Positions 14,250-48,319 of a stretch of 64,000 nucleotides of DNA are shown piece after piece. The notes beneath the pieces are model-generated. The model was not told the origin of the DNA. It worked only from the letters and a program-made list of their open reading frames with translations, and searched no databases. The stretch spans positions 211,089 through 275,088 of the forward strand of contig CAZNDZ010000002.1 in the NCBI GenBank assembly GCA_964572155.1. The letters run 5' to 3'. The stretch is from an uncultured Planctomycetales bacterium (GTDB taxonomy: Bacteria; Omnitrophota; Gorgyraeia; Zapsychrales; Fredricksoniimonadaceae). The position numbers were made by a program, and so were the translations under genes. Within the stretch, counting starts at the first letter, position 1. Every line of letters starts with the position of its first letter.

Positions 14250-14341
14250 TGGCGGAGAGGGAGAGATTTGAACTCTCGATCCAAGTTACCCCGGATAACA
14301 GTTTTCGAGACTGCCGCATTCGACCACTCTGCCACCTCTCC
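14250..14341 (-). tRNA. tRNA-Ser (anticodon CGA), CCA encoded
   Basis: Minus-strand read GGAGAGGTGGCAGAGTGGTCGAATGCGGCAGTCTCGAAAACTG...GGATCGAGAGTTCAAATCTCTCCCTCTCCGCCA. Long variable arm. Anticodon loop CU-CGA-AA. Confidence 0.85.
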
Positions 14342-14367
14342 AATATCCAAAAGTCTTTTTCAAGCCG

Positions 14368-31013: not shown

Positions 31014-32131
31014 AAGCCTCCCATTGCTTTAAAACGTTCTTGGGCTTTGCTTTCTTCAAGTGTTCGAAGCTGCTCTTCTTTGGCTTGATTGAGCATGTGG
31101 TCAATCACAATGGCATAATCGCTTATATCTTTTAATTTATCTGTAAGGGAATCTTTTTCTTGTTGTAAATAGGTGATACCTTTTTGGATAATATTCTTGT
31201 AAGCATCTTCCAAGATGGGATGATCTTTATAGCGGTTGAGCCATTCTAATGCTTCATTATATTGGTCGATGGCTTGACTAATGGCACGTTGGGATGCAAT
31301 CGCTTGCACATGATTTAGACGATCAGCATCATTAAGCGTAAGTAAAAAAATGAAGTCTACAGATGTAAAAGGCCTATTAGGTTGGGACAAACTTTCTAAC
31401 AGATCCGTGGCTACTGTCTTTTGATGCTGATATGTTGAAAGCGCATTGTTAATTGTCGTGATATTCGTGTCTTTATATGCTTTTAAGACATGTCCAATCC
31501 TTTTGGATGGGCCGACTAAAAATATTGCCCCACTCTCAACTCGCCAAACAGGCAAGATGGATAGAATGTTTTCCTTCTTAGCGCCTCGAAGATTGAAAAG
31601 GTTAAATAACTTTTCAAAAAGATTTGGCGCATTTACATATTCAAAATCTTTAAAGGCGGCATTGGCTTGACAACTTTTTAATAAGCTGTCTAAATCGTTT
31701 TTATATGTTCCCCTAAAGAACTTCTCCTGAACACAATTATAGATAGCTTCTTTGCGTAGCATATTTAGATCGTGACGATTATTATCTTCCAAGTCTTTTA
31801 AACGATCGTACGTTGTATTAAAACGCAAATATGACAATGTTTGGAAATGTTTAAATACATCTGCCTCCGCTGGCGCGCCATATTCCCAAAGTAGTAAGTC
31901 AGAGGACTTTAAATTTTGACGATGCGTTGTTGCACTTAAATCATCGATGGATTTCTTAATTTCTAAATCTGGATCAATACTCCATGTCATCAAGGGCTTA
32001 ACGACAGATTTCTTATACGCATATGGATCACCTAATGCCGAGGTCAAATCATGATCTGTTTTATCGCTTTGAAATATATCTGCCATGGCATTGGATTGCA
32101 GGATCAGAATTAATAATATTACGTGCATCAT
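31010..32131 (-). CDS. secreted hypothetical protein in the T4SS/pilus cluster
   Basis: 373 aa with a signal peptide (MMHVILLILILQSNAMA). Translationally coupled on both sides. No family recognised. Confidence 0.45.
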   Translation of the reverse strand: MMHVILLILILQSNAMADIFQSDKTDHDLTSALGDPYAYKKSVVKPLMTWSIDPDLEIKKSIDDLSATTHRQNLKSSDLLLWEYGAPAEADVFKHFQTLSYLRFNTTYDRLKDLEDNNRHDLNMLRKEAIYNCVQEKFFRGTYKNDLDSLLKSCQANAAFKDFEYVNAPNLFEKLFNLFNLRGAKKENILSILPVWRVESGAIFLVGPSKRIGHVLKAYKDTNITTINNALSTYQHQKTVATDLLESLSQPNRPFTSVDFIFLLTLNDADRLNHVQAIASQRAISQAIDQYNEALEWLNRYKDHPILEDAYKNIIQKGITYLQQEKDSLTDKLKDISDYAIVIDHMLNQAKEEQLRTLEESKAQERFKAMGGL

Positions 32132-32445
32132 TTAGTTGGAGCCTCAATTAACCTTGTAACGGCTTCTTGAGCTTTTTTAAGTTGATCCATCTTCTTTTGT
32201 TGCCAATCTAAGTACGCTTGTGCATTTGCTAGACTTGGGTCGTTAAGCAGATTGATCACGACTTGAGGTGTTGTTTTTGGCCAATCTAAAATATGCTCTT
32301 TTTTCTTAAATGGTTTCTTTTTATCGACCTGAAAATATTCAACGGGTTCCAGCTTAAAGAAACTATTTGCCAATAGCGTCGAAGGCAACAGCATCACCAA
32401 AAATATTACAGCGATGTTGGGTCGGGAATTGCGGTTTTGCAGCAT
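32128..32445 (-). CDS. small secreted hypothetical protein in the cluster
   Basis: 105 aa with a signal peptide. Overlaps both neighbours. Confidence 0.4.
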   Translation of the reverse strand: MLQNRNSRPNIAVIFLVMLLPSTLLANSFFKLEPVEYFQVDKKKPFKKKEHILDWPKTTPQVVINLLNDPSLANAQAYLDWQQKKMDQLKKAQEAVTRLIEAPTK

Positions 32446-33110
32446 TCTCTAAACCTCCAATAAACCCACAGATACTTTCCGGCAGGATCAACATGATCAT
32501 TTTCCCATAAACGAGCATCTGTGCCTGGAGCCATGCACATAAGCTTATTTGGCTCTAACATTTGCACTTTATCACGGACTGGATCAACAACAAAACCCGC
32601 GGCACTGATCCCTCTCAAGGAAATCAATGCAGATGAAACCCCTGGGCTATAATGGTTGATAAATCCTGTCCTTGGATAAAGCGGCCCCCAGTTACCAATA
32701 AAATATGACGCATTATTTACGGTTGCTCTGCGCCAATGTTCTTGATTAAACTCCGATAAATACCTTATGCCCATTGTTGTGCTTAATAGCGATGAACATA
32801 AAACAGCTTGTTGTATTTGTTTCAACGGGAAATCATAGACATGCACTTCATTAAAACGTAGGTTTCCTCCGTTTAAAGCGCCTAAACTAGATTTGCTTGC
32901 GATCGTACTCATGATAAAAGTTGGCTCATAATATGAGATTCTAATGCCTGGAACATCACCAACCATGCAGGGACCGTATTGTTTTAATTGGGTGCACTGC
33001 ATATCGATCTTGGTAATCGCATGACCAATGCGCGCCACCTCACCTTGAATATCCGTAACAGCAGCGAATGCGTTTGATCCGAACAACATGAGAAAAAGAA
33101 TATGGATCAT
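32406..33110 (-). CDS. periplasmic Cys-containing protein, candidate short TraU-like F-type T4SS component
   Basis: Signal peptide. Several blocks resemble F-plasmid TraU as recalled from memory (ISYYEPTFIM ~ IGYWEPMAL; IRYLSEFNQEHW ~ IAYLSEIDPTW; conserved Cys). 234 aa, versus about 330 aa for TraU. Confidence 0.35.
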   Translation of the reverse strand: MIHILFLMLFGSNAFAAVTDIQGEVARIGHAITKIDMQCTQLKQYGPCMVGDVPGIRISYYEPTFIMSTIASKSSLGALNGGNLRFNEVHVYDFPLKQIQQAVLCSSLLSTTMGIRYLSEFNQEHWRRATVNNASYFIGNWGPLYPRTGFINHYSPGVSSALISLRGISAAGFVVDPVRDKVQMLEPNKLMCMAPGTDARLWENDHVDPAGKYLWVYWRFRECCKTAIPDPTSL

Positions 33111-33988
33111 ATTTTCATAATAAAAGCCAAGGCATAAAACGGCGGAACATTATAATCTGCTGCAACGGTATGTGTATGCCCTTGCCCCCCTCCCGTCCTT
33201 CCCGTTCGCGGGATAGGACTAAACATGCTGGCATGACCGCCTGGATTACTTCCGTACAATCCTTTATTGCTAATTAAATCAATTGAAACATTTGGATTCT
33301 CCTCGTGATCATGTGAAGGTATTTCAGAAATTGTTAAAACATGACTTCCCGTTAAGCCCGTATGATCATGACTGACACTGCCACCAGTTTGATTTAAAGC
33401 CCCCATGATATTTGTTTTAGCAAAACCTTGGTCATCTTGCCTAGCACCTACTATAAACTTATCTCTTAAATCCGGCGTACCATTATTGCCGTCGCATAAG
33501 ATCCACCCAATGGGTATATCTGCAATAGTGCCTGACCAAGCAGCAATCACACCAGCGGCGATGATATTACGATCACTAACGCCAATCATGCTGCTGATGC
33601 TACTTCCCTCAGATGACGCTTGAGACAAACGTGCCATCAACATTCCTGTCAGATTCACTGGAACTTGAGTTGTGACCGTCATGGTTTTTGATGCAAATGA
33701 TGCCTGATATGCATGATTCCAAGGATTCCTTAATGACCATAAGGGGCTTAAATAGCCCTCTGTTTGTAATTGCTCCAAATCATTAGGCCACCGACGATTG
33801 TCAGTATAATATTTCTGAGCGGCTGTTTGGATGATCCCAACCTCAGTAATGGTTTTCTCGCCGGCTTTTATTTCAATAGCCCGCACCGCCATAGGCATCA
33901 ACGCAGATGTGAGCAATGCGATGATACCCATGGCTACGGCTAATTCAATTAAACTGAATGCTTTTTTATTTAGAATGTGACGGTCCAT
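33107..33988 (-). CDS. prepilin-type minor pilin fused to a C-terminal phage tail-collar domain (putative adhesin pilin)
   Basis: Class III signal (KKA|FSLIELAVAMGII, Glu at +5). GspG-like PWNHAY motif. C-terminal tail-collar-like sequence (GWILCDGNNGTPDLRDKFIVG...SHDHTGLTGSHVLTISEIPSHDH...PPFYALAFIMKI). Confidence 0.7.
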   Translation of the reverse strand: MDRHILNKKAFSLIELAVAMGIIALLTSALMPMAVRAIEIKAGEKTITEVGIIQTAAQKYYTDNRRWPNDLEQLQTEGYLSPLWSLRNPWNHAYQASFASKTMTVTTQVPVNLTGMLMARLSQASSEGSSISSMIGVSDRNIIAAGVIAAWSGTIADIPIGWILCDGNNGTPDLRDKFIVGARQDDQGFAKTNIMGALNQTGGSVSHDHTGLTGSHVLTISEIPSHDHEENPNVSIDLISNKGLYGSNPGGHASMFSPIPRTGRTGGGQGHTHTVAADYNVPPFYALAFIMKI

Positions 33989-34419
33989 GTTGAACTTGTA
34001 TCGTCATAGGCAACCTTAGTTGCGCTATTGTTAAAATAATTGGTTAATTTATCCGCCTCAGTTTTTGCCAAACTACTCAAGGAAATATCAAATCGCGTTT
34101 TATCTGCCGTATTGGCCACCACGTTATAATCCCCTCCCCACGGATTCGTCTTACTAGCAACAAAACCATCCGGCAATACTTTCGCGGTCTTAAGAACATC
34201 AACGCTCATGCCAGCATAATTGATATTACCCGACGCTAAATAACTCTCCGCCGCTGTCCTTAAAGTTTGAACACTATTTGCCGCTGACTGAACGCGGGCA
34301 TTGTCTCTTAAACCTGATGATACTGAAATACTTAAAATGAGCACTGTTAACACAGCCAGTCCTATGGCTAGTTCTACTAAAGAAAAACCTTCTTGTGATG
34401 CGATGCTTCTTCTTTTCAT
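33970..34419 (-). CDS. prepilin-type major (pseudo)pilin, GspG-like
   Basis: Leader MKRRSIASQEG|FSLVELAIGLAVL (G-1, F+1, E+5). GspG-like NPWGGDY motif. 149 aa. Confidence 0.75.
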   Translation of the reverse strand: MKRRSIASQEGFSLVELAIGLAVLTVLILSISVSSGLRDNARVQSAANSVQTLRTAAESYLASGNINYAGMSVDVLKTAKVLPDGFVASKTNPWGGDYNVVANTADKTRFDISLSSLAKTEADKLTNYFNNSATKVAYDDTSSTWTVTF

Positions 34420-34433: not shown

Positions 34434-35630
34434 TTACCCCCCCGCGATCTGTGTCAAACTCCCATACACAGGAATTAAGAACGCGAAGGCAATGATGATT
34501 AAAAACACTCCACCCAACAGCAATAATGCTGGTTGAATGAGCATGACCATTTGATCGACGCGGTCATGTACGCGCTTATTAAAATATCCTGATAGGTTTG
34601 AAACATATTCCGGTAGTCGTGTCATTTCTTCTCCACGACGAATAGTAAATATCACAACAGAGGAAAAAATCGGATCTGTTTTGAGAGCTTCCCATAACGG
34701 CATACCTCCAAACAAATAATCGCGACATTGATAAACATGACGGCTAATGATGCTCACATTTAACGCGTTTAAATCATTGATGCATTTGATCAATGGCACT
34801 CCGTTGCGCAATAAAATTGATAGATTTAGAAAATAAAACGCTAAGTCTGTTTCTTTCTTGATGCGGCCCATCAATGGGATGCGATATATCACCATGTCAT
34901 AAATACGCTGATTTTTTCTTAATACGAAAATGCCTACAGTCAATAGAATCACCGGAATAACGAGCAATAAAATAAAATGTTTTTGTAAGCATACACTCAT
35001 GGCAATCACAATGCTGGCCGTCCCTTTAAGGCGTGCAGTATCTGGTAATAATTGTTTTAATTTCGGAATAACGTTTAGACCCACATACATCATCACGCTT
35101 ATTAATAAACAAAATACGATCGATGGGTATGTCAAAGCTTCGTGTAATTTATGACGGATCTCTGCTTGCCTTTTAAAATACTGCGCTAAAAGTTGATACG
35201 ACGCTTCTAACTTTCCACTCTGTTCGCCGCTTTTGATGGTCAAAATAACGATCCATGGAAAAGTATTGGTTTTTCTAAAAGCATCCGCCAGACTTAAACC
35301 CTCCTCAATCTTATCTCTTAAAACATCAATAACATGAGCTAAAGTTACATCTTGAGTAGAATCCCTCAGTGACAGCAACATCTGCGTTAAACTTAATCCT
35401 GTTTGCTGCATATTGCTTAAATCTTCAAAAAATGCCGTTAAGGTCTTTACGGATAACCGTTTCATCTGATAAAACTTTTCGAAAAATAAGACGAAATCCG
35501 GCTGTAAATCGATCAACTCCAATTGATGCACCTTTATGTATGCCATTATTTCTTGTTTGGTTGCTGATAACGAACCACGGACATCTTGACCTTGAGCATT
35601 TAATGCCTGATATTTCCAATGTTTGATCAT
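34434..35630 (-). CDS. GspF/PilC-family inner-membrane platform protein
   Basis: 398 aa with two cytoplasmic repeats and 3 TM helices, typical of the T2SSF family. Overlaps the ATPase gene by 4 bp. Confidence 0.75.
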   Translation of the reverse strand: MIKHWKYQALNAQGQDVRGSLSATKQEIMAYIKVHQLELIDLQPDFVLFFEKFYQMKRLSVKTLTAFFEDLSNMQQTGLSLTQMLLSLRDSTQDVTLAHVIDVLRDKIEEGLSLADAFRKTNTFPWIVILTIKSGEQSGKLEASYQLLAQYFKRQAEIRHKLHEALTYPSIVFCLLISVMMYVGLNVIPKLKQLLPDTARLKGTASIVIAMSVCLQKHFILLLVIPVILLTVGIFVLRKNQRIYDMVIYRIPLMGRIKKETDLAFYFLNLSILLRNGVPLIKCINDLNALNVSIISRHVYQCRDYLFGGMPLWEALKTDPIFSSVVIFTIRRGEEMTRLPEYVSNLSGYFNKRVHDRVDQMVMLIQPALLLLGGVFLIIIAFAFLIPVYGSLTQIAGG

Positions 35631-37165
35631 CCAAGCACCCGCCTTGCTTCGTCAGGGGTTGTTTTACCCTCTTTGATCATCTGCAAAACCTGCGTCTCCA
35701 TCGATGTGGCAACACCCTGTGTTTTCAAATACGCTTTTAAACCGGCCATATTCTGCGCTAATAGTAATTCCTCGATGGTGTCATCACAATCAATGATCGA
35801 TGCCACAACACTACGCCCCTTAAACCCACCCAAACAATACTTACAACCTTTTGTACAATGCGGACATACCAACCGCACCAAGCGCTGTGTGATCACCATA
35901 GAAATATTGGATGCCATATAGGCAAATGGCACACCTAAATCATGAAGCCTTAAAAATGCATCTATGCCTTGCTTAGCGTGCAGAGTGGCAAAAACTTTAT
36001 GACCTGTCATGGACGCGCGTATGGCTTCTTGCGCAGTTTGGGCATCGCGAATTTCACCAATGAGAATGATGTTGGGATCATGGCGTAAGAAAGCACGAAC
36101 GGAATTGCCAAAATTAATATCTCTTTTATCATTGGTTTGTACTTGCGTGATTAAGGCATGATGCATTTCAACGGGATCTTCAATGGTCAGAATCTTGCGC
36201 TCAATGCTTTTCATGAAATTTAACATGGCATACAGCGTCGTGGTCTTCCCACATCCTGTAGGCCCAACAATCAATACCATCCCTTCTGGCTTCTTTAATT
36301 TCTGTTCGATCGTATACCACTGCTCTGATGTATATCCCAAAGACACCAAAGGGATTGAAGCCTTCTGCTTATCTAAAAGCCGCAAGACCAGTGAACTTCC
36401 CTGCACACAGGGAATATGTGATACACGGACATCCACCACGGCATGATGATGCGTATATGTGAAACGCGCGTCATGAAATTTGCCAAAATCACTGATCGTA
36501 ACATCCGCTTTATGAAAGATGATATTGACCAACCGTTTTTGTAAGTCTAACTTTAAGGTCTGATAAAAATGCAAGATCCCATCAATGCGAAAACGTACTT
36601 CGACAGCTTTTAAGGACGGCTCTATATGAATATCCGTAGCCCCTTTCGAGAGCGCGTCATTAAAACATTGCTCTACCCACTGTGGTAGATCATCCCCTCG
36701 TGTATCATCATGTGATTTCCATACCTCATCATTATTACTTAAATCTTCTATGGCTTTACGCAACGCCGCCTCAGGCGCTAACATAAATTGTGCTTTGGTA
36801 TTGATCTTGGCTTCAATGGCATCGGTGGTTGCCATGTCGTCACTAAAAGCCATGATAAAAACAATGCCCTCATGCGCCTTGGCAGGAAAAATCATATGCT
36901 TCACCATGAAATCAACGCCTAACAATTTAACCATTTCTTGCGCGGCTTCATATCGCCCCTCATAGACACCCCATCCAACTTGTTTGGCTAAGGCATGCAC
37001 AATTTGATCGTCGCTGATAAAGTCATAATCCTTTAACACTTTCCCGATGCGTTCATGCCCATTATTCTTCTGAACGGATAAACAAAAATTTAACGCCTTA
37101 TCATTGATTAATCCTTGTTCTTTTAGAATATGACCAATGCGTTGATTGTGCATTTTACCTCCCAA
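35627..37165 (-). CDS. GspE/PilB-family secretion ATPase with N-terminal MshEN/GSPII_E_N domain
   Basis: Walker A (GPTGCGKTTTLYAML), Asp/His boxes, tetracysteine motif (CPHC...C..C). N-terminal IGHILKEQGLINDKAL domain. Confidence 0.85.
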   Translation of the reverse strand: MGGKMHNQRIGHILKEQGLINDKALNFCLSVQKNNGHERIGKVLKDYDFISDDQIVHALAKQVGWGVYEGRYEAAQEMVKLLGVDFMVKHMIFPAKAHEGIVFIMAFSDDMATTDAIEAKINTKAQFMLAPEAALRKAIEDLSNNDEVWKSHDDTRGDDLPQWVEQCFNDALSKGATDIHIEPSLKAVEVRFRIDGILHFYQTLKLDLQKRLVNIIFHKADVTISDFGKFHDARFTYTHHHAVVDVRVSHIPCVQGSSLVLRLLDKQKASIPLVSLGYTSEQWYTIEQKLKKPEGMVLIVGPTGCGKTTTLYAMLNFMKSIERKILTIEDPVEMHHALITQVQTNDKRDINFGNSVRAFLRHDPNIILIGEIRDAQTAQEAIRASMTGHKVFATLHAKQGIDAFLRLHDLGVPFAYMASNISMVITQRLVRLVCPHCTKGCKYCLGGFKGRSVVASIIDCDDTIEELLLAQNMAGLKAYLKTQGVATSMETQVLQMIKEGKTTPDEARRVLG

Positions 37166-37682
37166 TCATGATGATCTTTTCTTGACCTTGTTCATCTGTG
37201 ATAACCATTCTGTCGTCGGAAATACTCTTGACCTTATAGGCGCTATCAATAAACTGCCCTATTTTGAAATACGTCACACTGCCATTTATTAGCACAATCG
37301 CCTGTTTTTCAGCACCTAATTGAACAATGCCATTTAATTTGATGGGATCTGACGCAACGTCCTTTATGTTCACTTCAGAGCTTTGTTCATACTTAGAGAG
37401 TTTTGATTGAATTTCTTTTTGCTTCAATTGCAAATCCGCACGCATTACATCCAGATCCAATAATTTTATTTCTCGTAATCGCTCATTTTCTTGATTAATA
37501 AATGCACGCATCGGATCCTCAGGTTTTTTCTCAGGAACAACGCTTTCAACAGTCTTAATAGAGTTACTTTCTTCTACTGTCTTGTCAGGATCTTGATCCA
37601 ACATAGATATTTCTTTGGCATGTATCTGAATCTGCCAAATTAAGAAGATACTGACGAAACAACAACATTTCTTAAACCCCAT
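37155..37682 (-). CDS. PilP/GspC-like bitopic protein (secretin-interacting HR-like beta domain)
   Basis: N-terminal TM, coiled coil, C-terminal domain (IKLNGIVQLGAEKQAIVLINGSVTYFKIGQFID...KVKSISDDRMVITD) resembling PilP/GspC HR domains. Confidence 0.5.
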   Translation of the reverse strand: MGFKKCCCFVSIFLIWQIQIHAKEISMLDQDPDKTVEESNSIKTVESVVPEKKPEDPMRAFINQENERLREIKLLDLDVMRADLQLKQKEIQSKLSKYEQSSEVNIKDVASDPIKLNGIVQLGAEKQAIVLINGSVTYFKIGQFIDSAYKVKSISDDRMVITDEQGQEKIIMIGR

Positions 37683-39213
37683 AAACCCCTCCTATGATTT
37701 GACATAACGCATTTTTACATTCAATCGATGTAATACGGATTGGATAAAACTCTTGCCATGAATTCATCAAGTCTAAAATGCGAACTCGTTCTGACGTAGA
37801 TGACACCTGATAAAACGAAAGTTTAAACTTGATGGCATTCATACCTAAATATACTGGATCATTCGTAACTATGTCGACGATCTCTAAATTCACTTTTAAC
37901 CCATAGGTGCTCGCATCATGTTTCAATCGACTCATAAAAGCGGCATAATTCAAGGAGGATTTCAAAACAACGTCATCTTTTAATAGCATTAATACGTTAA
38001 TCATTGTTTGTATATCTTTAGACCCATCATTTTTTGTAAGGGCCAATCGCAAGCGTTGACCTAGTTGATCATTAACCTTCTCATTTGTCACAATAGCGTC
38101 TTGCCATATGTCATGGAGCATCAAATCTCCTTGATACTCATAGACATTGGGAAGTATCATGGCGTTTAAATCCCATGCTCCATCTGTAACGTGATTAAGA
38201 TTAAATTCTTTTACCTCAAACCCGTAAGGCAAACGTTGGATGAGATCAAGATAAATGTCCTCGGCATTCTTATAAGATATGGATTTTAAGTACGCGCTTA
38301 ATTTTGTTTTGTACGCTAGAGCAAGGGCTTGTTTTATTTGCTGCTCCTTTTGTTGATGAAAAGCTTGAGCAGCCTTGGCTTGATGATCCAAATACATGCC
38401 AGTGCCCCATATACCACCACATGTAAAGATACCCCCCATCAAAATACCCAGATACGTGAGCCGTTGAGTAAACAGGGCATGTCGTTTTTTTCTAGCTAAA
38501 TCTTTAGGCAGGATAAAACTATGAGGAAATTTTGCGGTTTTTAATCCTTCAAGAACAGGATACGCAACATCTAAGTGCAAAACCTCATCTTGACTGACTA
38601 ATTTGAGTTTAATCAATGCGCTTAACCACTCTTTATTATTGCAAATAAGCACATAGCCCATGTCTTTGTCACTGCCTGCACTATAAACGCTCCAAGTTCT
38701 CTTAATCTCATGAGCCATATACTCCATATCGCGCATGGCAATGTGACGGGCATCGCTGAATTTAGAACCGCTAAAAATTGTCACAATGGCCATTGTTTTG
38801 ATATCATCAACAACAATCACTGCCTTCGTATCATTAAGCAAATCTTTAGATCTTAAGAAAGCGCGTAAAGCCACTTGATAAGGGACAAGCGCGCTCGGCG
38901 TAATGGGCTTGAAATATTCATAGATTTCTTCAATCTTAGATTTATTAACAGCCATCAACTGCACGACATTGGCAGATAACCACTCCTGTAAAACGAGATA
39001 CTCATCATTAAAAACCTGCGACATCAATGTTGTTTTTTGAGGCATCATGCTTGGTTCAATGGTCAACTGTTTTACTTGAACATGCAGACAAGCTACAGTT
39101 GCTTGCTTAAACGTGGATTTATAATTTCTGATAAATTCATCTTTTCCATAAGAACCAACATTCCCGTTAACCTCAAGGAATAACCATTCATCAAATAAGG
39201 CGTGCAACATCAT
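37672..39213 (-). CDS. GspL-like / PilM-PilN-fusion-like assembly protein (cytoplasmic actin-like domain, TM, periplasmic domain)
   Basis: 513 aa with a single TM near residue 265 (LTYLGILMGGIFTCGGIW), a roughly 250-aa cytoplasmic N-domain and a roughly 230-aa periplasmic C-domain. Positioned between the secretin and ATPase genes. Confidence 0.4.
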   Translation of the reverse strand: MMLHALFDEWLFLEVNGNVGSYGKDEFIRNYKSTFKQATVACLHVQVKQLTIEPSMMPQKTTLMSQVFNDEYLVLQEWLSANVVQLMAVNKSKIEEIYEYFKPITPSALVPYQVALRAFLRSKDLLNDTKAVIVVDDIKTMAIVTIFSGSKFSDARHIAMRDMEYMAHEIKRTWSVYSAGSDKDMGYVLICNNKEWLSALIKLKLVSQDEVLHLDVAYPVLEGLKTAKFPHSFILPKDLARKKRHALFTQRLTYLGILMGGIFTCGGIWGTGMYLDHQAKAAQAFHQQKEQQIKQALALAYKTKLSAYLKSISYKNAEDIYLDLIQRLPYGFEVKEFNLNHVTDGAWDLNAMILPNVYEYQGDLMLHDIWQDAIVTNEKVNDQLGQRLRLALTKNDGSKDIQTMINVLMLLKDDVVLKSSLNYAAFMSRLKHDASTYGLKVNLEIVDIVTNDPVYLGMNAIKFKLSFYQVSSTSERVRILDLMNSWQEFYPIRITSIECKNALCQIIGGVYGV

Positions 39214-40586
39214 TGATCTCTCCTTGGCGTCATAAAGATAATCAACTCCGTCTTATTATTCTTATGCTGACTGTACTCAAAGAATTTACCTAAGAGCGGG
39301 ACTTTTGAAAGGATCGGTACGCTTTGTTTAGAGTTTTCTTTTGTTGTGGTGATCAACCCGCCAATAGCAACGGTCTGACCTTCTTTTAACTTCACCATGG
39401 TATTGATAGACTTCGTGGTGGTTTGCGGCGCTTCAATGAGCGTATTGCCTGAGGTGATCGAACGAATATTATCTATGCTGGTTACAACCGGCGTGACCGA
39501 TAAATATATATCGTCGCCAACGATATTTCCCAAAAGGCGCATGGTCACGCCTTCTTGAACTTGGGATGTTGAGATTGACGTCACGGTGCCTGTTTGAGTT
39601 GTTTCAATGGATGAATGGTCAACGAAACTTTGAGTAGACCCCACTTGAATAACAGCAACCTGATTATTTAGAATCCTTACCCTAGGTTGCGAAACAACTT
39701 CCACCTTGCCTTGTTTAGCCAAAGCATCGATGGCTAATTTGAATTTCGAACCATCCGCGTAAAACTTTAAGAAATCACCACTTGTAAAATGATTCGATGC
39801 AAAATTACTAGACAATCCTAAACTATTAAACTTCTTTAAATCATCAATCAACACATTCCAATCAACCCCAAAACGATTCTCTTGGTTTAATGTGACTTCA
39901 ACAACCTTCACATCAACTTCAATTTGAACAGAAACTTTTTTGTTTAAATCTTTAAAATAGCGTCGAATGCTCTCTAATCTAAGCGGCACATCGGTCACAA
40001 TGACCATGCCTGCGGGCTTATTAACGGATATTTTGGCTGTAGATGACGCTAATGACTTAACATTATTTATCACATCATCCCAAAAGGACAATGCTGTCAA
40101 TTGACTGCCAACCACGATCTTTGTACCAAGTTTAACATGTTGACTTTGGGTGCTGTTGGATGAGTTGTCTGAGGATTCCACAAAAGATTCATTGCTAGTC
40201 ACATCATTGAAATCCTGCGTGATGGGCGGTAAAAGCACGCGAAAGATTTTGGTTTGTTCTGCTAAAATGATCAATTGATGATCTTCGATCTTGTAGCCAT
40301 ATCCAAGTGTATACAGCAATCGACTCAACACTTTGTCAATGCTCACATCTTTCACGTCGATACTGACCTTCTTATCTTCGACATTAACCCCAAGCAAAAC
40401 ATCATAACCCATAGATTGCGCAATGGGTTTCAACACCGACGTCAATGGCAAATCCATCACATGCAGTGTTACCACTTGCTGTAATCCTTTGGACGGCGTT
40501 GTTACATCGTTACTCGCCCATGCTCCTTGGCACGCTTGTAATGTCAGACACATCATCAACGTTATTATTTTCAGAAGGTTTTTCAT
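39210..40586 (-). CDS. secretin (GspD/PilQ/PilN family), possibly a lipoprotein
   Basis: C-terminal secretin domain (VKLKEGQTVAIGGLITTTKENSKQSVPILSKVPLLGKFF...IIFMTPR). N-terminus MKNLLKIITLMMCLTLQAC-QGAWA|S has both a lipobox-like Cys and an AxA SPase I site. Confidence 0.8.
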   Translation of the reverse strand: MKNLLKIITLMMCLTLQACQGAWASNDVTTPSKGLQQVVTLHVMDLPLTSVLKPIAQSMGYDVLLGVNVEDKKVSIDVKDVSIDKVLSRLLYTLGYGYKIEDHQLIILAEQTKIFRVLLPPITQDFNDVTSNESFVESSDNSSNSTQSQHVKLGTKIVVGSQLTALSFWDDVINNVKSLASSTAKISVNKPAGMVIVTDVPLRLESIRRYFKDLNKKVSVQIEVDVKVVEVTLNQENRFGVDWNVLIDDLKKFNSLGLSSNFASNHFTSGDFLKFYADGSKFKLAIDALAKQGKVEVVSQPRVRILNNQVAVIQVGSTQSFVDHSSIETTQTGTVTSISTSQVQEGVTMRLLGNIVGDDIYLSVTPVVTSIDNIRSITSGNTLIEAPQTTTKSINTMVKLKEGQTVAIGGLITTTKENSKQSVPILSKVPLLGKFFEYSQHKNNKTELIIFMTPRRDQ

Positions 40587-40848
40587 ACGACTCCTTTTGG
40601 GTTGCTATGGGATAAGCCCCTGCTTTGGCCCATTGCCCTGGTTTAATGAGTACCAATTCTTTGTGTTCTGGGATAAATACACCATTTTCAATATGCGCTG
40701 GAACACCAACATCTTGTACAATTGGCTCATTCCAATGGTAGAACGGCACGTTGCTGATTTTGGAAGCCTCATGTTTTACCTTTTCTTGCGCAGCGCAACC
40801 CATACACAAAACACCATATAACAATAAAAACATATACCTAAAGACCAT
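40510..40848 (-). CDS. small secreted/lipoprotein-like protein upstream of the secretin (pilotin candidate)
   Basis: Signal peptide ending in Cys (MVFRYMFLLLYGVLCMGCAAQ). About 112 aa from the internal Met. Translationally coupled to the secretin. Confidence 0.35.
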   Translation of the reverse strand: MVFRYMFLLLYGVLCMGCAAQEKVKHEASKISNVPFYHWNEPIVQDVGVPAHIENGVFIPEHKELVLIKPGQWAKAGAYPIATQKESYEKPSENNNVDDVSDITSVPRSMGE

Positions 40849-43318
40849 AAGGGTGCTCCTTTGCGCATAATTGTATTGCTTCCATAAAATCACCTTCGCA
40901 TTCCTCTACTTTCTTTATTAAATATTCATTATTACGGGGCTCAGAATTTGCCACCCAATATAAAAATGGATCCGGCACAAGACGCACAACACCACAAGAG
41001 TTTTCTGTAATCACTAACCCTTCAGAAAACTTACCCTTCACGGTTTCGAGCGTCTTAAGCAACTTAATTTTCTGATCATCTAAGGATAAGCTGCTTTTAA
41101 GCAAGTCAATGACAGCAGGTTCTTGTTTAAGAAAAATCTTATTTGAGGCATTGGCAATAATGGCAATACCACTTTCAACACGGGTTAAATCTGCAATTTC
41201 TTGTGTGATGGCAATGGTTGAACAGCGGTACTTGCGAAATGTCTTAAAGGCATTGGTAATAAAATCCGCCGTATTTTTTACTTTTAACAGGGACCACGCT
41301 TCATCAATGAGCAAATATTTTCTTTTAGAGCGCATCTCCTGATGAGCTACAAAATTTGTCATAAAGAACATGAGATTAAGCAAAACAGCCACTTGTAAAT
41401 CAGGGTAAGAACTTAAGTTTGCTAACTCAAAAGCAATAAAACGGCTATTCATTTGGAATTGATTGGGCCCATCAAAGAACCCACCGTATGGTCCTTTCTT
41501 AGTAAACGGCGTTAACCGCAAAGCCAGCGTTGGCCCCATTAAAGAATTAATGCCACAACTGCTGTTAAATTCATTGTCATTTAAAATTGACGTCACATCT
41601 GATAAGAATACTTCTTGGCGTTCATCTTTCTGGCGATATGCCACCATGATGGCTTGGTGCAGGAGGCCCTCTTCTTCTCTTGTCAGACGATAACGTTCAT
41701 CTCCACCACTTGCCATTTGTGACAACAATGATAGTAAAAACGATAAATTCTCAGGGGTCGGCGGATGGGCAAAAGGATTAAATGTAACAGGATTATTCAA
41801 ATCAAAAGCAACATATTGTCCTTTCAAGATTTGACATAATTTCTTATATGAATCGCCTTTATCTAAAATAAAAAAATGACTCCCTAAACGATCGCTTTGA
41901 AGGATAAAATCATTGATAAAGAAACTTTTCCCAGCTCCTGAAGCTCCCACGACAACCCCATGGGGGTTGATGTTAGAATCAAACATATCAAAATTAACAG
42001 CTTGGCCTCGACGATTGAAGTACATTTGAGCAAGGGTTCGCGTTCCTTGATAAGCTCCAAAGACAGGCAACATATCAGCAGCATTGTTAGATAACAACCT
42101 TCTGGAGCGACGGACAAAGTTTTCGTAATATGGATCGAAATTAAGAGGCAAACACGTCAAGAATAATGATGCCCCTATTAAATCCTCCTTCATGCCTTCA
42201 CATTGAAGTCGATTAAGGCCATTGATAATCTGATCACTCTGAGCTTCTACATCTTGTGCTTGAAAACCTCGAACAATCCAATGAAAGCGGGCCTGCACGA
42301 TGCGTTGATTACCCTGATACATTTCTTTAATCACATCATCAATCTCGTTCTTCTTCGCAACAGATTCAATAGATTGATCCCCTAACCAATTTTCTTTATG
42401 CATGAACGTAAAATCTTTTTGAAACTTTAACTGATCCAAAGATTTCTGTGATGATGGAACCGTAAGGTTAACCACCATCATCAACTCAACAGCTTGATCC
42501 AATAAATTAAAACTTCCTCCTTCATAAAATTCTTTACAAAACATCCCTATATGAGTTTCTATAGGCATTTCCTTTAAACTCATCAGACACATATGTTGCT
42601 CTTCAAAGAAAAACCCTTTTGCATTCGCGGATGGACTATTAAAAAGCACTTGATCACGAATATTCTCTTCCTCATTAAACCGATGATTAGGCGTTTTTAA
42701 AGAACGTTTTGGATTTAAAATCTCGTAAAGAAAAATTGTTAAGTCTTCTGCAGATAATGGTTGAACCTTAGTATGAACCGAATTAAATAATCCTTCGATT
42801 AAGGCAATATGTTGTTTAAAAGCATTTTGATGCGCTAATAATTCGCTTTCAACCTGCACGCCATTACTTCTTTTCCAAATAGGGAAAAATCTTACTGCAA
42901 CATAAATGTCAATATGCTTTAGAACAAATTTATGGTTATTATGCTCAAACAAACCGTGTTGATGGGTTTCTATATATGAAGAACGATTCTTTAAAAAAAC
43001 AGAAGTAACATTCTCATCTTCTTTGTAATTTGCATAATTCTTAAGGGACTCATTTATATTAGACTTTGTTCTTAGGATAAGTTGGCATGCAAAGTTTTCA
43101 GATGGCAGACGAGCTAAGAAGTTTTGCCATTGGATGATCATCATATTTAAATCACCTTCTGTTTTCCCTTCAATATCCGTCACCCCCACCTTCCAAATTT
43201 TCCCAAGGCTACCGTCGGATAAAATGCACATATCGTTGGAGTATTCAATATAGGGTAGCAAGTCGACAAAACTTAAGCCCTCGTCAAATAATTGCTCTAT
43301 GTCTTTATGTCGCAGCAT
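40838..43318 (-). CDS. traC: VirB4/TraC-family type IV secretion ATPase
   Basis: 826 aa. Walker A (VVVGASGAGKSFF). Hallmark Walker B (YLLIDEAWSLL) of the CagE/TrbE/VirB4 family. Position after the traV-like gene, as in F. Confidence 0.8.
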   Translation of the reverse strand: MLRHKDIEQLFDEGLSFVDLLPYIEYSNDMCILSDGSLGKIWKVGVTDIEGKTEGDLNMMIIQWQNFLARLPSENFACQLILRTKSNINESLKNYANYKEDENVTSVFLKNRSSYIETHQHGLFEHNNHKFVLKHIDIYVAVRFFPIWKRSNGVQVESELLAHQNAFKQHIALIEGLFNSVHTKVQPLSAEDLTIFLYEILNPKRSLKTPNHRFNEEENIRDQVLFNSPSANAKGFFFEEQHMCLMSLKEMPIETHIGMFCKEFYEGGSFNLLDQAVELMMVVNLTVPSSQKSLDQLKFQKDFTFMHKENWLGDQSIESVAKKNEIDDVIKEMYQGNQRIVQARFHWIVRGFQAQDVEAQSDQIINGLNRLQCEGMKEDLIGASLFLTCLPLNFDPYYENFVRRSRRLLSNNAADMLPVFGAYQGTRTLAQMYFNRRGQAVNFDMFDSNINPHGVVVGASGAGKSFFINDFILQSDRLGSHFFILDKGDSYKKLCQILKGQYVAFDLNNPVTFNPFAHPPTPENLSFLLSLLSQMASGGDERYRLTREEEGLLHQAIMVAYRQKDERQEVFLSDVTSILNDNEFNSSCGINSLMGPTLALRLTPFTKKGPYGGFFDGPNQFQMNSRFIAFELANLSSYPDLQVAVLLNLMFFMTNFVAHQEMRSKRKYLLIDEAWSLLKVKNTADFITNAFKTFRKYRCSTIAITQEIADLTRVESGIAIIANASNKIFLKQEPAVIDLLKSSLSLDDQKIKLLKTLETVKGKFSEGLVITENSCGVVRLVPDPFLYWVANSEPRNNEYLIKKVEECEGDFMEAIQLCAKEHPYGL

Positions 43319-43892
43319 CGTATTTCCTTTTGTTTTGGGTAGTTTGCTTTATTGGGAAGCCCATTGGACTTTTAACTTTTTGATCTTCTTCTTTCATGCT
43401 TAATAACTCTCTAATCTTTTCAAAAAGAGATATGATTTGGCTGTCATGTATATTAAATCTTCCTTCTACACGTAATTCGAGTTCTTGAATCTTTTGTGCT
43501 AATTCTTTATGGGTTAGAATTAAATCTCTTAATTTGACAAAAATACGCATGATTTGTAGATTAACTTCAATGGCTTTCTCACTGTTAAGTACTGAAGATA
43601 GCATTGCTATCCCAAGCTCTGTGAATGCATATGGTGGTTTTCTAGCGCCTCCCCATCTTGATATCGCAAAATGCGATATCAAGTTTCTCATCTCATCTTG
43701 AGTTAATTGAAACATACAGTCTTCAGGAAACCTTCTTGTATTTCTTTTCACTTGCTCATTTAATCTAAAGGTTTCAACTCCATACAAAATCGCCAAATCC
43801 CTATCCAACATAACTTTTTTGCCGCGTATCAAAAAAATTCTCTCTTGTATAACTTCTATAGAGACATCACTTACTTTGATATTTTTCTTCAT
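43305..43892 (-). CDS. ORF6N (KilA-N-related) domain DNA-binding protein
   Basis: Classic ORF6N sequence (RIFLIRGKKVMLDRDLAILYGVETFRLNEQVKRNTRRFPEDCMFQLTQDE). Start taken at MKKNIKV. Occupies the F traR position between traV and traC. Confidence 0.7.
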   Translation of the reverse strand: MKKNIKVSDVSIEVIQERIFLIRGKKVMLDRDLAILYGVETFRLNEQVKRNTRRFPEDCMFQLTQDEMRNLISHFAISRWGGARKPPYAFTELGIAMLSSVLNSEKAIEVNLQIMRIFVKLRDLILTHKELAQKIQELELRVEGRFNIHDSQIISLFEKIRELLSMKEEDQKVKSPMGFPIKQTTQNKRKYDAAT

Positions 43893-44256
43893 TTTTTTCT
43901 CCTTTGCCTTCTTTTCCAGGAACAATGATAGGTAAAATTGAGTCTTGTATTTCATCCTCAATAAACCACTTTGGCCCTCGAATCATAAGATAGACCCAAT
44001 GACCAGCAACTAGGACACCGGAATCTTGATCTGACTTATGGTCTGGGATCCATACTTTTTTAACGACTGGCGGCTCAATAACGGGAACATATGGCTTTAC
44101 ATAGCCAAATACTTTTTGTTCCTTGAATTGGTCCAATTGATTTATTTCAAGATCCGGCATTAATACTTTTCTTTCTGCTGTTTCTTTGACGAGTCGGTGT
44201 GCGCAACCGCTAGTTAATAGAAGACAACTTATTAAAATTAGTGCGTAATAGGCCAT
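43867..44256 (-). CDS. small lipoprotein, TraV/VirB7-like
   Basis: Signal peptide with lipobox-like LLTSGC. 129 aa. Position between the traB-like gene and traC, as for traV in F. Confidence 0.45.
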   Translation of the reverse strand: MAYYALILISCLLLTSGCAHRLVKETAERKVLMPDLEINQLDQFKEQKVFGYVKPYVPVIEPPVVKKVWIPDHKSDQDSGVLVAGHWVYLMIRGPKWFIEDEIQDSILPIIVPGKEGKGEKNEEKYQSK

Positions 44257-45307
44257 TGATTCTCACTCCTTTTTGAACGACAAAATATACACTATTGCCG
44301 CTGGGTATATGGACAGCAGGGATGATGTATTCTGCTTGTTTTTCGTAATATTGGGATAAATCGCTGGAACTTTTGGCAAGGCCACTAAACAAGGCATGCC
44401 GGCTCACATCGCCTGTCACATTACGTTCTACCTCGCCAAAGCGACTTTGTGATGTGGTGATTTCATTGTCAGCTAAAGCTGTTGAACCACCTGACATAAA
44501 TCCCCCTAAGAATGTTACGGCTAAAGCTTTGCCAGTATTTCTAACAACTTGCCCTTTGATCCCTAATTCACCATAAGCGTCGGTGACATAGCCAATGTCT
44601 TGTTCGTGTTCAAAGACTTGGCCATTGGGTAAAACAAACGATATGGCAACAATTTGAATAAGCGCTCGCTCTGAATTTATATCCCCAACGGCTTTGCCCA
44701 AGACAAAAGCACCCTTTAATGGAACTCTTGTTTTATTTGGGCCATAAAAAGCCTCATCCAATTTGATTAAGACAGGTAATGGACTGTTTAAATCTGAAGA
44801 AGCATAAACACCAGTTAGTAATGTCCCTTTACAAAATGATCCAATCGGTAAATAAACAAATTCTTTAGCTGAATCTAATTCTTTGATCGGTGCGACAGCT
44901 AGCTCAAATGATGTAGTTATTGATGTATCCTGATTAGATGTATTTGCAGCTATTATTTCTCGAATATTATTTAACGAATCAACCACTATTTTTTGGTCTT
45001 TGTTTGACTGTTCTGTTGCTTGTTTGATGGACTGTACTTGTTCTTCCATAGCTTTGATCCTATCTTCAAAATCGTAGTAACTTTTTTGAAGACCTTTCAT
45101 GAATTCCAGCTTCTCAGTGTCCCCAACGGCTATGCCCATGGCATCTTTTGATTGTTCTTTTAAAATAGGGATATCTTTCTTTTGAGTTAGATCTGATTGA
45201 GCAAATACAAAGACACAACATATAACAGCAACGACACCCAAAACCCCATAGGAGACCAATGGATCTTTTTTAAACTGTGCTTTTAGTTTTTCGAGGTAAT
45301 CATCCAT
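44210..45307 (-). CDS. traB: TraB/VirB10-family protein
   Basis: Short cytoplasmic N-terminus, single TM (VLGVVAVICCVFVFA), coiled-coil linker, C-terminal TrbI-like beta domain (GELGIKGQV...). Position after the traK-like gene. Confidence 0.55.
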   Translation of the reverse strand: MDDYLEKLKAQFKKDPLVSYGVLGVVAVICCVFVFAQSDLTQKKDIPILKEQSKDAMGIAVGDTEKLEFMKGLQKSYYDFEDRIKAMEEQVQSIKQATEQSNKDQKIVVDSLNNIREIIAANTSNQDTSITTSFELAVAPIKELDSAKEFVYLPIGSFCKGTLLTGVYASSDLNSPLPVLIKLDEAFYGPNKTRVPLKGAFVLGKAVGDINSERALIQIVAISFVLPNGQVFEHEQDIGYVTDAYGELGIKGQVVRNTGKALAVTFLGGFMSGGSTALADNEITTSQSRFGEVERNVTGDVSRHALFSGLAKSSSDLSQYYEKQAEYIIPAVHIPSGNSVYFVVQKGVRINGLLRTNFNKLSSIN

Positions 45308-45924
45308 ATCTTTGTCTCATCTCCTTCTTGGCCACTTGGATTTAAGATGTCCGAGTTTGACGCTATCGCCAGAATACCTTTATATGAAATCTGTTGAATC
45401 GGAACCATCGTGGCGCTGTTATTCAAGTTTTTTGCACTTAGTTCGTAAATGATTGTTGTTGGAAACTCATAAGCATGAGTAAAACTTAATTCAATGGGTG
45501 AATCTTTTAATGTTATAGTTCTATGTAAAGATATCTGTGTTGATCCTGCTGGAATATTTCCTAGAAGCACATCCTTCATTAAATCCATGACATTTAGATC
45601 CCCTTTAAAAGAATTTGTTTTACCACCAATAACAACGCTTAAATCGTGTGCTTGAGATATTTGTAAACTAAGTGGATACGATGTACCTGACGCCCCTGTT
45701 ACAAAAATGTCTGCAGGTGTATTAGACTTTGGCAAGATGTATAGTGTGCGATCTACAGCTTCTACTAGAATTGAATCTGCCGCTCCGCCTTTAATGACCT
45801 TAGAAATATTTTCAGGGAATGACACTTCACTCACCTTACCAACGTTGACATGCACGGTCGTGACTTCTGCAGCATTAAGGTTGTAACTAATGACCATAAA
45901 CAGAATAATTATAAAAACTCTCAT
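45283..45924 (-). CDS. traK: TraK/VirB9-family secreted protein
   Basis: Signal peptide. Beta-rich 213-aa protein in the traE-traK-traB position. Confidence 0.5.
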   Translation of the reverse strand: MRVFIIILFMVISYNLNAAEVTTVHVNVGKVSEVSFPENISKVIKGGAADSILVEAVDRTLYILPKSNTPADIFVTGASGTSYPLSLQISQAHDLSVVIGGKTNSFKGDLNVMDLMKDVLLGNIPAGSTQISLHRTITLKDSPIELSFTHAYEFPTTIIYELSAKNLNNSATMVPIQQISYKGILAIASNSDILNPSGQEGDETKIWMITSKN

Positions 45925-48196: not shown

Positions 48197-48319
48197 TTCA
48201 TTTGTAACTGCAATCGGGGGAAAGTTAAGGTGCGAATGAAGCTTATCGTTTAGGGGGATAAACGATTGATGAAACTACAATAATTATATTGATTATTTTG
48301 ATTGTGTCAAGAAATATTT

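Follow-up and report, generated by a model that had tools for sequence, protein, structure and literature searches.

Type IV pili (T4P) that help a type IV secretion system (T4SS) are known so far from IncI plasmids and from GI-type integrative and conjugative elements (ICEs), where they are encoded as separate clusters of R64-type type IVb pili (T4bP). The T4bP of PAPI-1 recognises lipopolysaccharide and captures recipients for the T4SS (PMC5297154). Here we describe a differently built pilus whose genes are interleaved gene by gene with those of a divergent F-like T4SS, on chromosomes of uncultured bacteria and with no visible DNA-processing genes. The locus lies in a stretch of 64,000 nucleotides, referred to as the window, of contig CAZNDZ010000002.1 (positions 211,089 to 275,088) from an uncultured bacterium of the Omnitrophota lineage. 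In an initial annotation of this DNA a secretin with a candidate pilotin and PilP-like and GspL-like partners had been noted within a tra locus. According to our analysis these genes represent the outer-membrane and alignment half of a complete T4P-like machine inside an F-like T4SS operon, and the pilus most likely captures target cells for the T4SS; we assign this interpretation a probability of about 0.75. Our literature search turned up neither a T4P encoded within an F-like tra operon nor such a system in Omnitrophota.

Comparison with described systems

To a large extent the order of the pilus genes follows that of the thin pilus cluster of R64/TP114 (pilL-M-N-O-P-Q-R-S-T-U-V, type IVb). 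The common core order, compared with the locus L013, consists here of the secretin, a large bitopic protein, a PilP-like protein, the ATPase, the platform protein, the major pilin and an adhesin-type minor pilin (L-numbers such as L004, L007, L009 or L020 are labels for related loci from other assemblies). In function the adhesin-type minor pilin corresponds to the PilV adhesins of R64/TP114 (PMC9045228), and in both cases the pilus is encoded together with a T4SS. However, the T4SS of R64 belongs to the MPF_I class, whereas the one here is F-like and its tra operon encloses the pil genes. R64 also possesses the prepilin peptidase PilU and the lytic transglycosylase PilT, neither of which is part of this cluster. 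The scanned ORFs included no counterpart of the R64 recombinase rci; no search was made for shufflon repeats. In addition, the pilin of this locus has a short leader and Phe at +1, and there is an extra PilO/GspM-like domain or gene. The initial annotation had cited R64 PilN among the lipoprotein secretins of T4bP; the relationship of the locus to the plasmid-borne thin pili is only a distant one and does not extend to membership in the R64 type. PilO2, PilM and PilL/TcpQ of Serratia and Rhodanobacter showed probabilities of at most 10.6% in hhalign comparisons with the family profiles, and the PilN and MshL scores of the secretin stayed below the cutoffs. The assignment to the R64 type was rejected on the missing similarity to PilO2, PilM and PilL and on the PilN score.

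Elements of the PAPI-1/ICE kind (GI-type T4SS) are likewise chromosomal and combine a T4P with a T4SS, but their pil genes form a separate R64-type cluster, and they contain an integrase, a relaxase and a type IV coupling protein (T4CP), which were not found here. Two features connect the locus with the mannose-sensitive haemagglutinin pilus MSHA (MshI-J-K-L, MshE): MshL is the best NCBIfam model for the secretin, and the MshEN motif of the ATPase scores above its cutoff. The MSHA cluster differs in gene order, equivalents of MshM/N and of MshB/C/D/O/P/Q are not present here, and the alignment proteins match no Msh family. A further common feature is the presence of PilMNOP-type alignment proteins; such proteins are rare beside T4bP, yet they occur in MSH pili and in type II secretion systems (T2SS; PMC6668835).

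BfpB of enteropathogenic Escherichia coli (EPEC) is an obligate lipoprotein. It is the best solved-structure relative of the secretin, and the major pilin matches the Bundlin family. Unlike BfpB, only 2/9 members of the secretin family have a usable lipobox, and partners of the BfpC/G/U type were not identified in this locus. With respect to the TraV-TraK-TraB core of the F plasmid, the locus has its own TraV, TraK and TraB. The system mixes T4b-like features (gene order, Bundlin-like pilin, nearest secretins) with MSH-like ones (MshL, MshEN) and with alignment folds of the T2SS and type IVa pili (T4aP).

Organization of the locus

All genes of the tra/pil run are located on the minus strand and are given in window coordinates (Table 1). 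The four overlapping ORFs between 37155 and 40848 correspond in position and strand to the initial annotation and encode a 112-aa lipoprotein, the secretin, and proteins of 513 and 175 aa; neighbouring ORFs overlap by 4-77 nt. Chance ORFs can be excluded because of the HMM E-values and the conservation in other assemblies. The four genes belong to a run of about 21 intact genes in the same orientation that extends from 48196 to 30648 and in which stop codons overlap or abut the following starts. It contains F-like parts equivalent to VirB2/3/4/6/7/8/9/10 alongside the pilus genes, which are bounded by traC on one side and a traU-like gene on the other and are therefore, as annotated, inside a tra locus.

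Five genes are found just downstream of the 175-aa gene, encoding an ATPase, a platform protein, two pilins and the TraU-like protein. As ATPase, platform and pilins follow directly, the unit is a complete pilus machine and not merely the "minimal" alignment set described before; it is also conserved as a full machine. In a scan of 19 kb the predicted sigma-70-type promoter was the sole 12/12 match among 51 sites. It precedes the first tra/pil gene by about 90 nt and lies between the stop of the ParE-like gene (48320, mapped from L001) and the start of the VirB6-like gene. The same scan revealed no convincing terminator within the run on the minus strand.

Table 1. Features of the tra/pil locus and its borders in window coordinates. 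A slash marks the processing site of the pilin leader.
Feature	Position	Strand	Evidence or remark
HepT-like/NTase-substrate-binding protein	49724-50104	-	upstream bracket of locus
PhD/ParE-like toxin-antitoxin	48320-48833	-	upstream bracket of locus
Sigma-70-type promoter match TTGACA-16-TATAAT	48283..48310	-	12/12 consensus match; predicted function
TraG_N/VirB6-like polytopic membrane protein, 373 aa	47075..48196	-	Pfam TraG_N E 1.4e-5, below cutoff
VirB2/TrbC-like conjugative-type pilin, 93 aa	46797..47078	-	Pfam TrbC E 1.4e-3, below cutoff
TraL (VirB3 equivalent)	46504..46794	-	Pfam TraL E 3.2e-7; NCBIfam TraL E 5.2e-5
TraE (VirB8 equivalent)	45921..46532	-	Pfam TraE E 6.9e-12; NCBIfam TraE E 8.3e-11
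TraK-like (VirB9 equivalent)	45283..45924	-	Pfam TraK_N E 3.5e-4, weak; TraE-TraK-TraB position as in F
TraB (VirB10 equivalent)	44210..45307	-	Pfam TrbI E 1.2e-20; NCBIfam F-type TraB E 1.8e-27
TraV-like outer-membrane lipoprotein, 129 aa, LLTSGC lipobox	43867..44256	-	Pfam TraV E 4.7e-5
ORF6N/anti-repressor-like gene	43305..43892	-	Pfam ORF6N E 2.4e-32; PHROG anti-repressor E 8.4e-29
TraC (VirB4-type ATPase)	40838..43318	-	Pfam TraC_F_IV + P-loop_TraG
Small conserved lipoprotein, 112 aa	40510..40848	-	lipobox; candidate pilotin or TraV paralogue
Secretin, 458 aa	39210..40586	-	Pfam Secretin E 2.6e-34; STN E 1.7e-6
GspL/PilM-PilN-like bitopic protein with fused PilO/GspM-like domain (putative), 513 aa	37672..39213	-	AlphaFold (AF2) model + Foldseek
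PilP/GspC-HR-like protein, 175 aa	37155..37682	-	AF2/Foldseek fold + weak HMM signals
GspE/PilB-type extension ATPase with MshEN N-terminus	35627..37153	-	Pfam T2SSE E 3.7e-91; MshEN E 1.3e-5
GspF/PilC-type platform protein	34434..35630	-	Pfam T2SSF E 3.5e-35, two copies
Major type IV pilin, 149 aa, leader MKRRSIASQEG/FSLVE	33970..34419	-	Pfam Bundlin E 9.5e-7, PilS, N_methyl
Minor pilin, 293 aa, phage tail-fibre/collar-like C-terminus	33107..33988	-	N_methyl; PHROG
Short TraU-like protein, 234 aa	32406..33110	-	Pfam TraU E 3.1e-12, C-terminal part only; TIGR03756 E 1.5e-6
orf105, orf373, YraN/UPF0102 nuclease-fold gene	30648..32445	-	UPF0102 E 1.9e-31; stops/starts overlapping
HicA/HicB toxin-antitoxin	30005-30591	-	downstream bracket of locus

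The 513-aa and 175-aa alignment proteins

Relatives of the 513-aa protein are scarce: a word-indexed search of 5.8 billion proteins yielded 8 and an HMMER scan of 1.84 billion representatives 115. In 66 aligned family members none of the Pfam families for T4P/T2SS assembly proteins (PilM, PilN, PilO, GspL) was detected, and the sole Pfam matches were three stray ones in single members (E 0.003-0.006). NCBIfam gave no match, and a search of the family profile against the Protein Data Bank (PDB) sequences returned noise only. The predicted structure was more informative. The AlphaFold model built on the 66-sequence alignment has a pLDDT of 90.3 and displays an alpha/beta, actin-like part (residues 1-230), a single long helix (236-311) and two ferredoxin-like modules (317-393 and 415-512), the second with the topology alpha-beta-beta-alpha-beta-beta. 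Judged from the homologues, the long helix contains the transmembrane (TM) segment, with a Kyte-Doolittle (KD) hydropathy of 1.6-2.6 at about residues 242-273. Foldseek against the PDB identified PilM (5eou, E 2.8e-9), the GspE-bound cytoplasmic domain of GspL (4pht, E 9e-9, TMt 0.60) and EpsL (1w97), with FtsA lower in the list. The model thus supports a GspL/PilM-like protein by fold, not by sequence family, in agreement with the predicted arrangement of cytoplasmic domain, TM segment and periplasmic part.

Most relatives of this protein are shorter, with about 395 aa, and the last ~115 aa of the 513-aa protein are homologous to a separate protein of 161-166 aa encoded next in these relatives. 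The separate protein has an N-terminal TM helix that the fused form drops, which is topologically consistent. In the T2SS and T4aP the GspL-like and the GspM/PilO-like parts are separate as well, whereas they are fused in one chain here. A frameshift or a pseudogene as the origin of the fused 513-aa ORF was rejected: the same 513-aa protein is present in three separate assemblies, and similar long forms of 509-543 aa without a second TM helix occur independently in other lineages. For the same reasons the fusion is a natural architecture, and the locus displays a natural GspL-GspM-type fusion.

The 175-aa protein is composed of a hydrophobic N-terminal signal or anchor, a low-complexity linker, a long helix (coiled coil) and a C-terminal beta domain. 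The matches to Pfam T2SSC (E 1.6e-3, 18.7 with a cutoff of 27) and to the PilP model TIGR03021 (E 1.1e-3, 20 with a cutoff of 34.65) are weak, so that the cutoffs for the PilP/GspC-HR sequence families (PF04351, PF11356, TIGR03021) are not reached; weak T2SSC matches recur in 4/5 members of the family. A comparison with the R64-type PilP of a Serratia plasmid using hhalign resulted in an E-value of 4.6e-5, the third independent, though weak, sequence signal in this direction; a search against PDB sequences returned noise only. In the AF2 model the C-terminal domain has a pLDDT of 81-93. The top 12 Foldseek matches in the PDB are all PilP or the HR domain of GspC/PulC, followed by GspB at rank 13 and LspC at rank 15. 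They include 2ivw from N. meningitidis, 2y4y, 2y4x and 2lc4 from P. aeruginosa, 3oss_C from enterotoxigenic E. coli (ETEC) and 6hcg_e of PulC; the C-terminal domain matched 3oss_C with TMt 0.84 and an rmsd of 2.0 and 2y4y_C with TMt 0.68. At the level of the model, these matches confirm the PilP/GspC-HR fold proposed initially. Both partner proteins therefore resemble alignment-complex proteins of T4P and T2SS: the folds are common to GspC/GspL of the T2SS and PilMNOP of T4aP, and similarity to these sequence families is not detectable. The GspL/PilM-like protein, the PilP-like protein and the lipoprotein coupled to the secretin are covered by no Pfam or NCBIfam family and can provide seed alignments for three "hypothetical" families.

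The secretin

The secretin consists of a signal peptide, an STN/N0 region and the secretin domain. It belongs to the secretin superfamily PF00263, as the Pfam Secretin model scores 118.7 bits (cutoff 27.5); the STN score is marginal (28.1 with a cutoff of 28.4). The Pfam domain ends at residue 455 of 458 and leaves no room for a C-terminal S-domain, which makes piloting of the PulS type unlikely. The ATG at 40586 is preceded by AAGGAG 5 nt upstream. Although the gene caller of one public assembly had picked Met12 as the start, the homologues carry complete signal peptides that begin at the position corresponding to Met1.

Among the NCBIfam models MshL ranked first with 203.1 bits, followed by R64 PilN (139.7), PilQ (118), SctC (116) and GspD (114), all of them below the cutoffs; those for MshL (TIGR02519) and R64-type PilN (TIGR02520) are 250.2 and 287.65. 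With PDB sequences the best match was BfpB (77.5 bits, residues 86-455), before PilQ (63), GspD (52) and pIV of phage f1 (36.9). Using tblastn, 115 plasmid records matched at least 80% of the secretin, and the best-ranked matches listed are mostly T4bP secretins of the PilN family with 24-27% identity. Coverage in phage records never exceeded 63%, and some of these match the C-terminal half. By sequence comparison the secretin thus belongs to the MSH/T4b side, nearest to BfpB, PilN and MshL, and not to the phage exporters. A filamentous-prophage remnant with a pIV-type virion exporter, for which the generic secretin domain and the C-terminal phage matches could be quoted, can be dismissed since the secretin scores and coverage contradict it and the neighbours are pilus and tra genes instead of pI/Zot-type phage genes.

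The N-terminus of the secretin, MKNLLKIITLMMCLTLQACQGAWA/S, is as quoted in the initial annotation, which had suggested that the protein could be lipidated. It satisfies a PROSITE-style lipobox pattern (TLMMCLTLQAC). Within the family a usable lipobox is restricted to the secretins of the window and of L021, whereas a site of the signal peptidase I (SPase I) type (WA/QA/FA), six residues past the lipobox position, is conserved. In the secretins of L004 and L011 the lipobox Cys is replaced by Phe. The origin of the Cys can be seen in the overlapping reading frame of the lipoprotein gene: its TGC codon is formed by the last two bases of a Val codon (GTG) and the first base of a Pro codon (CCA), and this Val-Pro belongs to the conserved C-terminal "...S-V-P..." motif of the lipoprotein. 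The Ala before the Cys is likewise derived from an AGC Ser codon of the lipoprotein frame. The Phe in L004 and L011 would follow from a GTT Val codon, as judged from the genetic code and not from reading their DNA. The secretin lipobox is therefore most readily understood as a side effect of the two overlapping reading frames. Lipidation is possible for the protein of the window, but it is not a trait of the family.

The small lipoprotein upstream of the secretin

The start codon of the lipoprotein (ATG at 40848) overlaps the traC stop by 11 nt and has an AAGGAG 7 nt upstream. The 112-aa protein begins MVFRYMFLLLYGVLCMGC/AAQ. The G-C core of the lipobox is invariant in 12/12 members and the strict pattern is passed by 10/12; the two others, from the window and L009, fail solely through a Cys at position -3. 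In ten loci the gene is directly upstream of the secretin gene. The overlap of the two genes, measured in three loci, amounts to 77 nt in the window (40510-40586), 95 nt in L004 (4607-4701) and 77 nt in L007 (2052-2128), where the lipoprotein ORF had been missed by the gene caller. This two-frame overlap is kept even where the secretin-partner proteins are only about 28% identical. In the overlap, the lipoprotein tail D-I-T-S-V-P-x-S-M-G dictates the c-region of the secretin signal peptide. The lipoprotein gene is also retained without nearby tra genes in L019 and L023, from which we conclude that it belongs to the pilus module.

The initial annotation had proposed this protein as a pilotin. 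A conserved small outer-membrane lipoprotein encoded beside its secretin was indeed found, but it has no homology to the known pilotin families (PulS/OutS, AspS, PilF/PilW/Tgl, MxiM/YscW, TcpQ). Searches against Pfam, NCBIfam and PHROG gave no match, and hhalign showed no similarity to R64-type PilM or TcpQ/PilL. The only similarity is to the TraV family of the locus itself, and it is weak (hhalign E 2.2e-4, probability 45%, 92 collinear columns; BLASTP with the local TraV E 0.003 over 35 residues); the Pfam TraV family PF09676 is not matched directly. TraV is considered to anchor TraK, a protein that has itself been compared to a secretin, in the outer membrane of F systems (PMC7555446). An attractive, although unproven, sense of the term pilotin here would be a secretin partner derived from TraV. 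The alignment with the TraV of the locus is collinear but weak, and the small lipoprotein follows the pilus cluster even without tra genes. With this arrangement the locus offers testable candidates for the piloting of a secretin by a TraV-type lipoprotein; as a hypothesis, the 112-aa protein may act as the pilotin.

Motor, platform and pilins

The N-terminal part of the ATPase contains two tandem MshEN-type motifs of the form RIGxxL...Q, RIGHILKEQGLINDKALNFCLSVQ and RIGKVLKDYDFISDDQIVHALAKQ, and exceeds the cutoff of the NCBIfam cyclic di-GMP (c-di-GMP) motif model NF053729 (39.9 bits, cutoff 38). About 7-12 kb further down the minus strand from the ATPase gene three histidine kinases with seven TM helices are encoded, as well as a GAF + HD_5 (HD-GYP-type) protein at 23525-24709. 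These proteins could bear on c-di-GMP control.

The minor pilin is chimeric. Its prepilin N-terminus carries Ala instead of Gly at -1 (KKA/FSLIE), as do the homologues in L004 and L014, and HxH motifs are present in the C-terminal domain. Residues 139-293 match the PHROG families tail protein (E 2.4e-25) and tail collar fibre (E 6.7e-13), and tail-fibre proteins from 197 phage records share about 34% identity with this domain. The minor pilin is likely a tip adhesin.

The presence of the GspL-like and GspC-HR-like folds, a hallmark pair of the T2SS, raises the question of whether the machine is a T2SS-like exporter with a pseudopilus piston instead of a surface pilus. In the same direction, GspE is the second-scoring NCBIfam model for the ATPase and GspF the top-scoring one for the platform protein. 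The scores for GspD, GspE and GspF are, however, far below the cutoffs, the set of minor pseudopilins GspH-K is absent, the major pilin matches Bundlin/PilS and the N-terminus of the ATPase is of the MshE type. Moreover, the large receptor-binding-type head of the 293-aa minor pilin suits an exposed fibre. We therefore consider an exporter of this kind very improbable.

The F-like tra genes and conservation in related loci

The F-class mating-pair formation (MPF_F) members TraL, E, K, B, V, C and U are all present, TraU in a short and partial form. The tra proteins are nearest to the F-type models of NCBIfam, yet each score is below the curated cutoff; TraC for example reaches 374 bits with the F-type TraC model (cutoff 567). 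The Pfam score of the TraV-like protein is above the cutoff (24.8 bits, cutoff 21). For the proteins at the beginning of the run the homologues in L007 gave comparable signals (TraG_N E 2.3e-4 for the VirB6-like protein; TrbC E 7e-3, below cutoff, for the pilin), and the 93-aa VirB2/TrbC-like pilin has a signal peptide and two hydrophobic helices. The scanned ORFs of the window and of related loci included neither TraW, TrbC, TraN, TraF, TraH and a full TraG nor the coupling protein TraD and a relaxase. The missing genes of F-type conjugation could be elsewhere in the genome.

At least four other lineages have the same nesting. The shared order of traC, lipoprotein, secretin, GspL-like, PilO-like and PilP-like proteins, ATPase and platform was found in L004, a metagenome-assembled genome (MAG) labelled Candidatus Omnitrophota and the sole relative with this label, in L009/L010 from European Nucleotide Archive (ENA) metagenomes, in L020 and in L021. 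L020 is an 86-kb contig with the full block from the VirB6-like gene to TraC between genes for a ferrochelatase and a response regulator. Identity to the proteins of the window amounts to only 25% for its GspL-like protein and to 58% for its TraC. The identity of 58% for TraC between such distant loci indicates purifying selection. A different order, consisting of secretin, fused protein, VirB2-like protein, TraL, TraE and TraK, is present in L018 (1-3765). Taken together, the pilus module is an entity of its own that is repeatedly and stably tied to F-like T4SS genes.

The ORF6N gene lies between traV and traC in the window and in L004 and is absent at this site in L009 and L020; it is probably a secondary insertion. 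A copy with 49% identity follows the pilus ATPase gene in L023 (8418-8930), and the gene looks like a small selfish gene hopping inside these clusters. The trio orf105-orf373-YraN is also located after traU in L004 and L009; orf105 and orf373 have no family match in Pfam or NCBIfam.

Function of the pilus and alternative explanations

The tight packing from traC to traU, the single strong predicted promoter and the conserved nesting are the reasons why the pilus most likely serves the T4SS. With the folds and the gene set demonstrated, the remaining mechanism can be drawn by analogy. As in PilMNOP-PilQ and GspC/L/M-GspD, the PilP-like beta domain would dock on the N-terminal STN/N0 ring of the secretin. 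The GspL-like protein would hold the hexameric ATPase under the platform, while its paired periplasmic domains would link to the complex of PilP-like protein and secretin. The ATPase, probably gated by c-di-GMP via MshEN, would polymerise the 149-aa pilin through the secretin, with the tail-fibre-headed minor pilin presumably at the tip as adhesin. For the small lipoprotein the most likely task is to pilot the secretin or to anchor it in the outer membrane, comparable to the role of TraV towards TraK. The pilus would then capture target cells for the co-encoded T4SS in the same way as the conjugative T4bP of R64/TP114 and PAPI-1.

Several observations weigh against this interpretation. Scanning of all ORFs of at least 450 aa revealed neither a coupling protein (VirD4/TraD) nor a relaxase in the window, and the scanned flanks of L020, with ferrochelatase and response regulator, contained none; a conjugative role is therefore unproven. 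In L022 (5729-14697) TraC alone, with 58% identity, is joined to the lipoprotein, secretin and pilus genes, L007 has kept only the VirB6-like and VirB2-like genes with the pilus cluster, and L014, L019 and L023 contain the cluster without visible tra genes. The partial or missing tra sets in L022, L007, L019 and L023 demonstrate that the pilus can exist without a full T4SS. As to the pilus itself, a prepilin peptidase and a lytic transglycosylase were detected neither in the cluster nor among the window ORFs scanned, a retraction ATPase is not part of the cluster, and the NCBIfam scores of the T4P core proteins are all under the curated cutoffs. In addition, the model of the 175-aa protein was calculated from an alignment of just 2 sequences, the separate 161-166-aa protein and the fused domain were equated with PilO/GspM by position and topology and not by a fold search, and the hypothetical role of the lipoprotein is suggested by gene position and the weak likeness to TraV. 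The pilus genes of L022 adjoin a CsgG/DUF4810/GNA1162 cluster.

That neither a T4CP nor a relaxase was found in the window and beside L020 would also fit a different use of the same genes, namely an integrated, non-conjugative composite of T4SS and T4P for contact-dependent delivery of effectors or DNA to prey or host, or for DNA uptake. Such a chromosomal nanomachine of uncultured, possibly Omnitrophota-type bacteria would combine the T4P secretin, alignment complex and motor with a minimal ComB-like core (VirB2,3,4,6,7,8,9,10), joined by paralogous TraV-type lipoproteins, and would carry an MSH/T4b-like pilus with a tail-fibre-tipped pilin. In line with this idea, the locus is chromosomal and shows neither a GC shift nor flanking repeats nor a tRNA beside it, at least two different ways of interleaving tra with pil genes exist, the single TraC of L022 stays with the lipoprotein-secretin pair, and a TraV-like lipoprotein adjoins the secretin. 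Furthermore, the tra and pil block of L020 (2731-16914) includes a VirB2-like pilin but no type IV pilin gene in the available sequence. On the other hand, nothing supports a physical contact between the two machines, the DNA-processing genes could be located elsewhere in these fragmentary genomes, the pilus cluster stands alone in L019 and L023, and the known pairs of T4P and T4SS (R64, PAPI-1) work as separate machines. A composite machine is therefore possible but unlikely; the locus nevertheless raises the question of whether T4SS and T4P cores cooperate beyond simple adhesion.

We also considered that an unrelated T4P cluster was inserted by chance in a tra operon, without a functional link and with the tra genes maybe as a decaying remnant. 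Mobile-type genes are indeed around: ORF6N inside the run and toxin-antitoxin pairs on either side of it. TraW, TrbC, TraN, TraF, TraH, TraD and TraI are missing from the tra set, and relatives have partial tra sets. However, the nesting is kept across lineages with orthologues at 25-58% identity, all genes are intact with overlapping stops and starts throughout, and the purifying selection on TraC noted above does not suit a decaying remnant. An accidental neighbourhood of pilus and T4SS genes is thus improbable, and capture of target cells for the T4SS remains the preferred function of the pilus.

Genomic surroundings

The remainder of the window is ordinary chromosome with men genes, xseA, serS, lpxB and histidine kinases. 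Signs of a recent integration were looked for in the form of a GC shift at the locus, an adjoining tRNA and flanking direct repeats, and none was present; an integrase was not found among the window ORFs scanned. Searches of a plasmid collection with the locus DNA and with the 513-aa protein gave no match, so that the locus is not a known plasmid module. The HicAB pair that brackets the locus downstream was also found after the locus in L009.

Three further minus-strand ORFs of the window, at 2610-5669, 12211-14343 and 50826-54230 (1019, 710 and 1134 aa), have no Pfam match above the cutoff. The 1134-aa ORF shows a sub-cutoff match to CusB_dom_1 and is located in a stretch with very strong negative GC skew (-0.33 to -0.36). 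The called start of the 710-aa ORF is probably wrong, as a tRNA-Ser gene (14250-14341) overlaps its 5' end.

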